Assembly (NCBI GenBank): GCA_007376385.1 | Contig: VMGC01000004.1 | Coordinates: 64,001 to 128,000 of the forward strand | Direction of reading: 5' to 3' | Source: Parcubacteria group bacterium Gr01-1014_8 | GTDB lineage: Bacteria; Patescibacteriota; Minisyncoccia; Phycocordibacterales; UBA2100 | DNA: 64,000 nt | Shown here: positions 9,128 to 12,081 of the stretch, piece by piece | Numbering within the stretch: position 1 is the first letter of the stretch | Layout of the letters: each line of letters opens with the position of its first letter | Translations under genes and position numbers: made by a program | The notes under the pieces: generated by a model | What the model was told of the DNA's origin: nothing | What the model saw: only the letters and a program-made list of their open reading frames with translations | Database searches by the model: none

Positions 9128-12081
9128 AAAGTTACGATCATAAACGTATAGAACGAAAGTGGCAGGCACGCTGGAAGAAATCGAAGCTGTACAAGACTGC
9201 CGATACGGTAAAAGGTAAGAAAAATTATTATTTGCTAACTGAATTTCCGTATCCGTCTGGCAATTTGCACGTCGGACACTGGTACGCTTTTTCTGTACCG
9301 GACATTTTAGCAAGAGCGCTCCGCATGCAAGGCAAGAATGTGATGTATCCGTTCGGCTTTGATGCATTCGGATTGCCTGCGGAAAACGCAGCCATAAAAA
9401 ATAAGTTGAATCCTCGAAAATGGACCCTCGGCAACATCAAGTACATGAAAAAACAGATAACCTCGATGGGTGCATCGTTTGATTGGTCTCGAGAACTCGC
9501 TACGTGCGATCCTGAATACTACAAGTGGACGCAGTGGCAGTTTTTGCAATTTTTTAAGGCAGGACTCGCATATCGAAAAGAGACAGCAGTCAATTGGTGC
9601 CCTTCGTGCAAGACAGTGCTTGCGAACGAGCAGGTAGTGGATGGAAAATGCGAACGATGCGGAACGGAAGTGATTCAGAAGCAAATGCTTCAATGGAACT
9701 TAAAAATCACCGACTATGCGGACCGTCTTATTGACGATTTGAGCACGCTGGATTGGCCTGAACAGATAAAGGAATCGCAGAAAAATTGGATAGGACGTTC
9801 TGAAGGCGCCGAGATAGATTTCAGGCTCACAGGAAATGTAGGCGATGACTCACGGTATCTGATCCTCCACGGCAGAGAAGGGAAGCCCACGAGCGTCTTT
9901 ATTCCATGGCTCAAAGAAGAACTGGAAAAAGCTGGACATGAAGTGGAAGTGCCACAGCTTCCCAACACGAATGAACCGAATGCATATGAACAGGCAGAAT
10001 ACATCCTCAAGAACTGCACCGTAGATGAAAAAACAGTTGTGATAGGCCACTCGATAGGAGGAGTTACAGCGCTGCGTCTCTTGGAGAAGGGCGCAAAGGT
10101 TAGGCGCGTTATATTGGTCGCGACACCGTACTCAGGAAGATTTTTGGATGGTAAGAAACGGCCGAGCGTCACAGATTCCGTGAAGAAGGGGTTCGATTTC
10201 GAGACGATACGGAACAATACAAAGAGCATCATTGTTATGCCGGATGTAAAAGATGACAGAGTTCCATTTTCCGACGCCGAGAGCTATGCGCAGAAACTGG
10301 CCGGGATGCTGGTCCATGGCAGGGGAGAGGAGAAGCATTTTATGGGTAAGATAGAGCCGGATGTATTGATGTGCCTTTGCCCCACTATCCGCGTTTTTAC
10401 GACGCGAGCCGACACGCTTTTCGGGGCGACCTACATGGTCTTGTCCCCGGAACATCCATGGGTACGGTTAGCGATAGATGATGATCACAAAGTTTTAGAA
10501 AATAAGGATGAGGTAAAGGAATACGTCACAGCGGCGAATAAAAAAACTGAGCTGGAACGCCTCACGGAACAAAAAGAAAAGACCGGGGTGAGGCTGAAAG
10601 GCGTTGAGGGAGTAAACCCCGCTACGGGCGAGAAGATACCGATATTCGTAGCAGACTACGTGCTTGCGCACTACGGGACAGGGGCCATCATGGCGGTCCC
10701 GGCGCACGATGAGCGCGACTTTGCATTTGCCAAGAAATTTGAGCTGCCGATACGAGATGTGATCTCTACTGGAAAGATGGAATCCGGCGTGTTCGCAGGA
10801 GAAGGAGTGTTGGTGAATTCCGGCGCGTTCAATGGGCTAAAAAGTATCGAGGCTAAGAGCACGCTCACCGATAAATTTGGCCGCAGTAAAATCACGTACA
10901 AACTCCGCGATTGGATAGTTTCGCGCCAGCGTTACTGGGGAGTTCCAATACCCATCGTCCACTGCGAAAGGTGTGGAGACGTCGCTATTCCTGATCCACA
11001 GCTTCCCGTTACATTGCCGGAAATCAAAGATTATTTGCCAACCGGAGACGGAAAATCGCCTCTCGCAAAAGCCAAAAAGTGGGTCAAAGTGAAATGTCCG
11101 CAGTGCAAAGGGACGGCAGAAAGAGAAACAGATACTCTCGATACGTTCGTCGATTCATCCTGGTACTTTTTGCGGTACGCGGACACAATAAACAAAAAAA
11201 AGTTTGCCGATATGAAAAAGATGGATGCATGGATGCCGGTAGATCTCTATTCCGGAGGAGCAGAACACACAACGATGCACCTCCTCTATTCTCGCTTCTG
11301 GCAGAAGGCGCTCTACGATCTAAAGCTCGTTAAGGACAGCGAGCCGTACACGCGAAGGATGAATCGTTCCATCATTCTTGGTCCAGACGGGCAAAAGATG
11401 TCGAAATCCCGAGGCAACGTGATAGACCCGGATGCTGTTGTCGCGAAACTCGGCGCAGACACCGTGCGTATGTACCTTGCCTTCATAGGTCCGTATAATG
11501 AGGTTTCGAACTATCCGTGGAATCCGGATGGTGTGGTAGGTATTCGCCGTTTTCTCGAGCGTGTTTGGCGCCTCCGCGACCGACTTACGATATCGGTCAA
11601 GAAAAGTGACGGACATACGATATCGAACATCGAACGGATGCTGCATGTAACGATTAAAAAGGTGGGGGACGATATCACTGCCCTGAAATTCAATACTGCC
11701 ATCGCGCAGATGATGTCGTTTATGAACGAAGCAGAGAGTAAAGGGATCACAAAGGCGCAATACGAGACACTGCTTCGGCTTCTTGCCCCGTTCGCTCCTC
11801 ATATTGCAGACGAACTTTGGAGCATGATGGGACACAAGAAGTCGGTTCATATTGAAAAATGGCCCGCATTCGATCCGCATAAACTCGCGTCGTCGTCGTT
11901 TACAATTGCGGTACAAGTGAATGGCAAGACACGAACTCAAATCACCATACCTGCTGCAGTGAAGGAAGACGCCGTGAAGGAACAGGCTGAAACAGCTGCA
12001 GGAAAATGGTTGGAGGGAAAGGCTATAAAAAAGATCATCTACGTGCCCGGCCGCATCGTCAACATCGTCGCGGGCGAATAG
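9124..12081 (+). CDS. leuS: Leucyl-tRNA synthetase carrying an inserted alpha/beta serine-hydrolase domain
   Basis: HIGH-type '[11 protein letters not shown]', KMSKS 'QKMSKS', CP1 editing-domain landmarks 'VFTTRADT', '[19 protein letters not shown]' and '[12 protein letters not shown]'. Residues about 243-419 form an RBBP9/YdeN-like hydrolase (LILHG...VVIGHSIGG...). Total 985 aa. Confidence 0.9.
   Translation: [985 protein letters not shown]

Follow-up and report, generated by a model that had tools for sequence, protein, structure and literature searches.

A serine hydrolase module nested in the leucyl-tRNA synthetase of a Parcubacteria group bacterium and its recurrent linkage to leuS

In the ultra-small Parcubacteria group bacterium Gr01-1014_8 (assembly GCA_007376385.1), the leucyl-tRNA synthetase (LeuRS) encoded by leuS carries within its CP1 editing domain a complete and putatively active serine hydrolase of the RBBP9/YdeN type. 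The gene lies in the window analysed here, a stretch of 64,000 nucleotides that corresponds to positions 64,001-128,000 of the forward strand of contig VMGC01000004.1. Most of the closest free-standing homologues of the inserted module are encoded beside leuS genes, and other LeuRS carry the same module at a second and distant site. The best explanation we can offer is that the nested hydrolase belongs to a subfamily of LeuRS partners, present either as a separate gene or at two sites of the synthetase and likely acting in trans, a proposal that in our judgement stands about evenly between right and wrong.

A serine hydrolase within LeuRS

The preliminary description of this locus had announced a LeuRS of 985 residues with an in-frame insert. 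This was borne out by a single open reading frame at 9124-12081, whose product reaches 986 bits with the bacterial LeuRS model TIGR00396 (leuS_bact, cut-off 548.4) in two stretches, split around profile position 238/239. The gene and the elements of the insert are the following, with positions referring to the window and conservation to the 120 closest LeuRS:

9124..12081, plus strand: leuS coding sequence, 985 residues and a stop in one open frame, a bacterial-type LeuRS hosting the hydrolase insert
9784..9834, plus strand: last LeuRS segment before the insert, residues 221-237, first strand of the CP1 hairpin (from the alignment; strand 225-237 as modelled)
9835..10386, plus strand: inserted segment, residues 238-421, 184 residues that stand in for a 4-residue hairpin loop of the T. 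thermophilus LeuRS
9853..10377, plus strand: RBBP9/YdeN-type alpha/beta-hydrolase fold, residues 244-418 (PF06821, AlphaFold2 and Foldseek)
9868..9873, plus strand: HG oxyanion-hole motif, His249-Gly250 (His in 120/120, Gly in 113/120)
10045..10059, plus strand: nucleophile elbow G-H-S310-I-G, with the Ser310 codon TCG at 10051-10053, aligned with RBBP9 Ser75
10141..10161, plus strand: F340-L-D342-G-K-K-R346, signature of the LeuRS-associated subfamily, aligned to RBBP9
10243..10254, plus strand: D374-V-K-D377, with Asp377 (10252-10254) as the catalytic acid by homology in the alignment (RBBP9 Asp138)
10336..10338, plus strand: catalytic histidine His405, equivalent to RBBP9 His165 (120/120)

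By score, fold and catalytic residues the insert belongs to PF06821 (Ser_hydrolase), the RBBP9/YdeN family, as had been proposed at the outset; hidden Markov model (HMM), profile and fold evidence agree on this point. The family model matches the insert with 33.3 bits in the context of the whole protein and 37.6 bits alone (gathering score 22, E 2.7e-9), and a profile built from 20 family inserts matches both B. subtilis YdeN (1UXO) and human RBBP9 with E about 4e-21. When the insert was modelled alone with AlphaFold2, the hydrolase fold was predicted with a mean pLDDT (predicted local distance difference test) of 93.7 and a pTM (predicted template-modelling score) of 0.91. The best Foldseek matches of this model were RBBP9, with a template-modelling (TM) score of 0.81 and a root-mean-square deviation (rmsd) of 2.4 Å, and YdeN, with a TM score of 0.80 (rmsd 2.4-2.6 Å), the E-values of generic esterases being worse by some seven orders of magnitude. 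When the full-length LeuRS was modelled, no other part of it was predicted with as much confidence as the insert (pLDDT 91-97). On the other hand, tRNA_edit, tRNA_SAD and DTD domains gave no Pfam or NCBIfam match in the insert at E up to 1.

The serine of the nucleophile elbow sits exactly at the codon first indicated and is kept in 119 of the 120 relatives, together with Gly312 in all of them. The C-terminal histidine that had been expected is His405, whose counterpart is kept in all 143 modules with a residue at that column. As for the third member of the triad, described at first as a later Asp, a triad acid can indeed be placed, although it needs specifying as Asp377 (Asp in 100 relatives, Glu in the other 20). 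Asp374 was considered for this role and rejected, because Asp377 is the residue that aligns with the acid of RBBP9 and YdeN, even though Asp374 is the more conserved of the two (119/120); it is a clade-specific acid, replaced by Ser in both RBBP9 and YdeN. In the signature upstream, Phe340, Asp342 and Arg346 align with Leu103, Asp105 and Arg109 of RBBP9.

Among the 120 relatives the insert varies much more than its host, with mean pairwise identities of 0.43 vs 0.71 and with 15 of 178 insert columns conserved at 95% or more, vs 331 of 797 in the rest of LeuRS. Those few constant columns include His249, Ser310, Gly312, Asp374 and His405, a pattern that points to purifying selection for catalysis.

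Insertion point and integrity of the synthetase

Alignment with the T. thermophilus enzyme (1H3N) pairs residues 1-237 of the window LeuRS with Thermus residues 1-238, and residues 422-753 with 243-579. The extra segment measured in this way is about 184 residues long, so that the insertion claimed in the preliminary description stands while its estimate of some 177 residues was short. The insert had also been placed just before CP1; it lies instead within this domain, because the match to the editing-domain family PF13603 picks up after the insert at profile position 22. CP1 is itself an insertion in the Rossmann fold of LeuRS, and the hydrolase, nested inside the first beta-hairpin of CP1, is a second-level insertion. 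Strands 225-237 and 421-426 precede and follow it in the full-length model, and 5-8 residues separate its end from the T-rich peptide FTTRADT.

The signatures of the host synthetase are these:

9268..9279, plus strand: HIGH signature of the synthetic site, HVGH, residues 49-52, invariant in 58 relatives
10387..10893, plus strand: remaining part of the editing domain CP1, from residue 422 to about 590 (PF13603 covers 421-584)
10396-10416, plus strand: T-rich peptide FTTRADT of CP1, present and invariant in the family
10675-10719, plus strand: conserved 15-residue CP1 segment, present and invariant in the family
11395..11409, plus strand: KMSKS signature of the synthetic site, residues 758-762, invariant in relatives

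PF13603 matches the editing domain with 189 bits, and Thr427, Arg428, Asp430, Thr431, His528, Asp529, Arg531 and Asp532 of CP1 are invariant among the relatives. The HIGH, KMSKS, TTRxDT and HDxRD residues being intact and invariant in the family, the editing site is not degenerate and the hydrolase is an addition to LeuRS and not a replacement, as was originally pointed out. By the 1H3N alignment the leucine-specific domain has no counterpart in this protein, where the step from residue 753 to 758 (about 11380-11400) corresponds to that from 579 to 637 in T. thermophilus. This domain is found in the T. thermophilus and E. coli LeuRS and is not universal.

Several observations speak for the reality of the insert. 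An identical LeuRS of 985 residues is encoded on three contigs of separate assemblies with the same neighbours, and GC content is even across both junctions. The same insertion, whose presence in related LeuRS had been suggested as a check, was found at the same site in 120 of the 120 closest LeuRS as a segment of 186-200 residues, mostly in proteins from organisms named Candidatus Kaiserbacteria, and a DNA pattern that spans the junction matched 88 further metagenomic loci. An assembly chimera is unlikely on these grounds. The idea of an intein or another mobile in-frame element was likewise rejected: Hint, intein and endonuclease domains gave no Pfam match in the insert even at E up to 1, no direct or inverted repeats beyond chance matches lie beside it, and the junctions, which read LTG/NVG and CPT/IRV, lack the splice-type succession of His-Asn followed by Cys, Ser or Thr. 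A defence-system reading was also rejected, as there was no match to defence models.

Linkage of the module to leuS

A word-indexed search with the insert alone gave no match, which reflects the limited sensitivity of that method, since an exhaustive HMMER search recovered 1547 relatives, of which the contexts of the best 150 are described here. They comprise free-standing proteins of 175-195 residues, LeuRS with the module at the site occupied in the window (site A), LeuRS with the module at a second site (site B), other host proteins and fusions. In none of these contexts has the HG motif, the serine or the histidine been lost. A neighbour-joining tree of 144 modules, with long terminal branches and no support values, was used only to choose near and far clades and gave way to signature residues for telling them apart; gene neighbourhoods were examined for the nine closest free-standing homologues and for two controls from a distant clade.

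Seven of the nine free-standing homologues turned out to be linked to leuS, the other two being on short and uninformative contigs. Four of them (P0139, P0126, P0148 and P0147) lie 7, 3, 25 and 37 nucleotides upstream of a co-directional bacterial leuS, and none of these four leuS genes has a hydrolase insert, one of them carrying a NUDIX insert. A fifth (P0156) lies 1 nucleotide upstream of an archaeal-type leuS, and a sixth (P0161) 1.35 kb from a bacterial leuS. The seventh (P0146) belongs to a tight co-directional cluster (L007:4001-8549, GCA_020049755.1) that encodes two Ser_hydrolase proteins, a YbaK-like tRNA_edit protein, Ham1 and an archaeal-type LeuRS, and which has the appearance of a small operon for quality control or house-cleaning around the synthetase. 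The two controls had unrelated neighbours and no leuS nearby.

The signature formed by Phe340-x-Asp342, Arg346, Asp374 and Glu411 is present in the leuS-linked free-standing copies and not in the controls. Moreover, where leuS bears the insert, no separate hydrolase gene lies in its vicinity, and where the insert is absent, such a gene lies upstream. The conserved neighbourhood, the fusion at two independent sites of LeuRS and the subfamily signature together argue for functional coupling between hydrolase and synthetase. In this way the functional tie to LeuRS suggested in the preliminary description gains independent support from gene neighbourhood and recurrent fusion. A promiscuous hitch-hiker with no such tie, which the range of hosts had initially suggested, was downgraded by the neighbourhoods of the free-standing copies.

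Other sites and other hosts

Two further positions of LeuRS receive modules in relatives and are empty in the window protein:

10759..10791, plus strand: CP1 loop, residues 546-556, without insert here, where 85 of the 120 relatives carry a NUDIX module
10957..10989, plus strand: site B, residues 612-622, empty here, where other LeuRS bear the hydrolase module, immediately past the first CxxC of the ZN2 knuckle

Carriers of the hydrolase at site B include P0157, P0198, P0189, P0207 and others. The NUDIX module, at a site other than that of the hydrolase, keeps the strict NUDIX box GX5EX7REUXEEXGU intact in 77 of the 85 cases (carriers are for instance P0002 and P0105) and looks catalytically active, judging from these residues. 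Single LeuRS sequences showed still other additions: a HAD_2 phosphatase-like domain at residues 683-839 (P0061), a GNAT acetyltransferase together with the hydrolase module (P0210), and an IS200-like Y1 transposase domain at residues 269-374 (P0205).

The hydrolase module is not confined to LeuRS either. In uncultivated organisms it occurs in frame within valyl-tRNA synthetase (ValRS, P0174), alanyl-tRNA synthetase (AlaRS, P0181), UvrB (P0185), UvrA (P0246), SecA (P0152), EngA/Der (P0202) and TsaD (P0190), and in other proteins it is fused to adenylate kinase, Ham1, NUDIX or an S51 peptidase. This promiscuity had not been anticipated when the insert was first noticed. Taken as a whole, the pattern suggests that small, putatively active enzymes are frequently nested inside essential proteins of uncultivated organisms.

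In the metagenome Ga0209542, more than 25 distinct contigs (among L017-L096) code for LeuRS bearing the hydrolase at site A, evidence that the co-occurring diversity of these organisms is high.

Mosaic leuS alleles

At the protein level, some pairs of LeuRS with 92-97% identity in the body bear inserts that share only 39-47% identity, and NUDIX may be present in one and absent in the other member of a pair. Two types of hydrolase insert, with 34% mutual identity, are strewn almost randomly over the host tree. The leuS alleles of 80 metagenomic loci were then compared as DNA, at four-fold degenerate sites. Pairs with near-identical flanks at these sites always shared the insert, and discordance was seen only among moderately diverged, mosaic alleles; simple swapping of a cassette, which the protein pairs had suggested, was rejected on this basis. 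In L084 and L094, a block at about residues 197-498 is 98-100% identical in DNA between flanks of 51-87%; in L031 and L059 the same block is synonymous-saturated between flanks that are 85-94% identical; and the pair L031/L032 is mosaic as well. The block spans the insert together with the first half of CP1, which corresponds to about 9710-10620 in the window. These mosaics reflect either recombination of the insert with the adjacent part of CP1 or chimeric assembly of co-occurring strains.

Genomic context in the window

Besides leuS, the window contains three synthetase genes: cysS (12085-13611, minus strand), a class II gene of D/K/N type (29993-31474, minus strand) and alaS (48973-50976, minus strand). 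Among the four, the hydrolase module is found in LeuRS only. The convergent leuS and cysS have 3 nucleotides between their stop codons (12081-12085). The AlaRS, of 668 residues and with no hydrolase insert, stops at the tRNA_SAD editing module and appears to lack the C-Ala domain with which bacterial AlaRS typically end. No tRNA gene was found in the 64-kb window despite its four synthetase genes, nor any Rfam family at the gathering threshold.

Proposed role and alternative explanations

In the explanation that we prefer, the insert is a complete and putatively competent RBBP9/YdeN hydrolase nested in the first beta-hairpin of CP1, with both the synthetic and the editing sites of LeuRS left intact. 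Of this explanation, the analysis establishes the fold, the conservation of the catalytic residues, the point of insertion, the integrity of the host motifs and the recurrent linkage to leuS. Its subfamily, recognisable by Phe340-x-Asp342, Arg346, Asp374 and Glu411 besides Ser310, Asp377, His405 and the HG motif, would be a dedicated partner of LeuRS in Kaiserbacteria-like bacteria of the candidate phyla radiation (CPR) and in some organisms with an archaeal-type LeuRS, encoded by a short gene that immediately precedes leuS or within LeuRS at either of two surface sites. We infer that Ser310 would attack, at its carbonyl, an alpha-aminoacyl ester, thioester or amide tied to the LeuRS reaction. 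Candidate substrates are the 3' end of mis-acylated tRNA after its release (mischarged tRNALeu), reactive compounds that arise as by-products when near-cognate amino acids are activated (homocysteine thiolactone, for instance), and aminoacyl-nucleotide analogues or inhibitors that block the synthetic site. The hydrolase would most likely act in trans, tethered or co-expressed, and not as a fixed third station on the path of the CCA end, because the partnership persists both as a separate gene and at two distant sites.

Several points weigh against this proposal. The module is not exclusive to LeuRS, given its presence in ValRS, AlaRS, UvrA/B, SecA, EngA, TsaD and the fusions mentioned above, and LeuRS itself, which also takes NUDIX, HAD, GNAT and IS200-type transposase domains, may be only a permissive host. 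CP1 looks fully competent, which leaves no obvious need for another deacylase, and the nine neighbourhoods are not phylogenetically independent samples. Finally, Glu108, the residue that anchors the alpha-amine in RBBP9, aligns with Lys345, a position variable or gapped in the module family. Since this anchor is not conserved and the LeuRS clade has charged residues of its own, the specificity of RBBP9 is not directly transferable to the insert.

A broader version of the proposal, which we regard as possible though rather doubtful, takes the exchangeable set of RBBP9-like hydrolase, NUDIX, HAD and GNAT domains in LeuRS of Kaiserbacteria-like CPR bacteria as a 'guard' layer around the synthetase. 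The hydrolase, which would then represent a new kind of enzyme dedicated to a synthetase, would destroy aminoacyl-carbonyl species beyond the reach of CP1 (for example leucyl-adenylate-mimicking antibiotics, thiolactones or further reactive aminoacyl by-products, or released mischarged tRNA), and the mosaic, fast-turnover block around the insert would be the trace of an arms race or of cassettes that recombine often.

A more conservative possibility, a serious rival even if we give it limited credence, is that a housekeeping esterase or aminopeptidase with substrates of its own is parked in a permissive loop of LeuRS and has no mechanistic tie to it. Its premise, that tiny CPR genomes often combine small enzymes with essential and highly expressed proteins, by fusion or by nesting, agrees with the range of hosts and fusion partners, with the other domains hosted by LeuRS in this lineage and with an insert that evolves much faster than its host. 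Permissive loops cannot explain, however, why most of the closest free-standing copies lie beside bacterial or archaeal leuS genes, and the subfamily signature that follows this linkage, as well as the two independent insertion sites in one and the same host, speak in the same direction. The preliminary description had suggested a hydrolase at the hinge between synthetic and editing sites that deacylates in cis the passing 3' end of tRNA, as a third proofreading site. The proximity of the end of the insert to the T-rich peptide that lines the CP1 pocket, the alpha-aminoacyl cleavage performed by the family prototype and the YbaK-type aminoacyl-tRNA deacylase of one leuS cluster, which suggests a proofreading theme, are all compatible with this role. 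Nevertheless, it fits poorly with a subfamily that is also associated with LeuRS when encoded by its own gene upstream or when inserted at the distant ZN2 site, with no fixed geometry conserved, and with the invariant editing residues of CP1, and we consider it unlikely.

About equally improbable in our view is a role in amino-acid supply, in which an RBBP9-like aminopeptidase would free leucine and other hydrophobic residues from scavenged peptides beside the synthetase, the organism being unable to synthesise amino acids. RBBP9 is described as an aminopeptidase that captures Leu/Ile, Met and aromatic residues and cleaves the alpha-aminoacyl group, and action in trans would be compatible with this role, as would the presence of LeuRS, ValRS and AlaRS among the hosts and the fusion of relatives to S51 dipeptidase. 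Those fusions, though, sit in a distant clade without the LeuRS signature, the alpha-amine anchor of RBBP9 is not conserved, and the association with NUDIX, Ham1 and YbaK would be left unexplained together with the UvrA/B, SecA, EngA and TsaD hosts. An artefact or a selfish element, be it an assembly chimera, an element that is intein-like or mobile and stays in frame, or a degraded spacer devoid of catalysis, is very improbable. The mosaic leuS alleles from metagenomes, in which the block around the insert has a history unlike that of the flanks, and the transposase domain in the LeuRS of one relative could be read in its favour. Against it stand the identical protein in three assemblies and an architecture found in more than 200 independent sequences, the smooth junctions free of GC shift, repeats and intein-type domains, the conserved catalytic residues and the confidently predicted fold.

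Relation to known systems

RBBP9 and YdeN (PF06821; structures 2QS9, 7OEX and 1UXO) share with the insert a lid-less alpha/beta-hydrolase fold of about 180 residues (180-190), the HG motif, the G-H-S-x-G elbow and the positions of the catalytic Asp and His. The hydrophobic pocket of RBBP9 is partly kept, with Phe340 in place of Leu103 and Val380 in place of Leu141. The insert, in contrast, is only 23-25% identical to these proteins and nested in another protein rather than free-standing; the Glu108 anchor of RBBP9 is swapped in it for a variable residue, and the conserved charged set of the LeuRS clade (Arg346, Asp374 and Glu411) is absent from RBBP9 and YdeN. Regarding the chemistry of related enzymes, the reference list of PMC7730578 cites RBBP9 as an enzyme that activates valacyclovir, a nucleoside analogue esterified with an amino acid, and human BPHL, another alpha/beta hydrolase, is both a valacyclovirase and a thiolactonase (PMC4198189).

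CP1, which can be compared together with lineage-specific insertions of LeuRS, offers a parallel within the protein itself, as a hydrolytic module inserted in a class Ia synthetase that remains intact alongside the hydrolase, but fold and mechanism are unrelated, a Ser-Asp-His triad in the insert vs a triad-less pocket in CP1. The nearest curated precedent is ileS_w_GNAT (NCBIfam NF040702), also a class Ia synthetase, to which a domain with small-molecule enzyme activity has been added; host and enzyme are different there, and the window LeuRS scores 88.8 bits vs a cut-off of 1999. YbaK/ProXp, AlaX and DTD are accessory hydrolases that act in trans on the products of one synthetase, a likeness reinforced by the YbaK-like gene of the L007 cluster, yet they have no relationship to the insert in sequence or fold. 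No alpha/beta hydrolase acting as trans-editing factor or partner of a synthetase was found in the full-text literature searched, which does not cover subscription-only papers.

A functional analogy, and only that, can be drawn with MccF, MccE and HinT, which protect synthetases from mimics of aminoacyl-adenylate (PMC7157772). The serine hydrolase MccF cleaves the aminoacyl-nucleotide bond, and MccE, a GNAT, acetylates the alpha-amine of a processed mimic of aminoacyl-adenylate (PMC7157772); serine hydrolase and GNAT modules both occur in the LeuRS studied here. The insert is not homologous to MccF, however, and had no match among the defence models.

The preliminary description knew of no hydrolase fold in any LeuRS, which does not hold for the databases. 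The architecture occurs in well over 100 deposited LeuRS and is annotated automatically, through the Joint Genome Institute (JGI) name 'leucyl-tRNA synthetase/predicted alpha/beta hydrolase family esterase' and through lists of Pfam domains; in the same full-text literature, subscription-only papers again being outside its reach, no description of a hydrolase-bearing LeuRS was found. The combination is thus catalogued automatically and widespread in Kaiserbacteria-like genomes, yet appears uncharacterised in the literature searched.

Biological significance

Aminoacyl-tRNA synthetases are among the best-studied enzymes, and their known quality control relies on a few editing folds: CP1, INS/YbaK, AlaX and the second additional domain of ThrRS, and DTD. 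A hydrolase kept with LeuRS across three gene architectures and in both LeuRS types would, if confirmed, mean an accessory activity of a different chemical kind. The setting is the least-understood major bacterial radiation. A conserved link between a serine-triad hydrolase and LeuRS in several architectures would surprise specialists. Were the enzyme to act on mischarged tRNA or on some reactive aminoacyl by-product, a further proofreading mechanism would join those already catalogued, whereas an aminoacyl-nucleotide inhibitor as substrate would make of the insert an antibiotic immunity embedded in its own target. And if the module were after all an unrelated enzyme parked in LeuRS, it would document an unusually frequent nesting of active enzymes in essential proteins of CPR bacteria.

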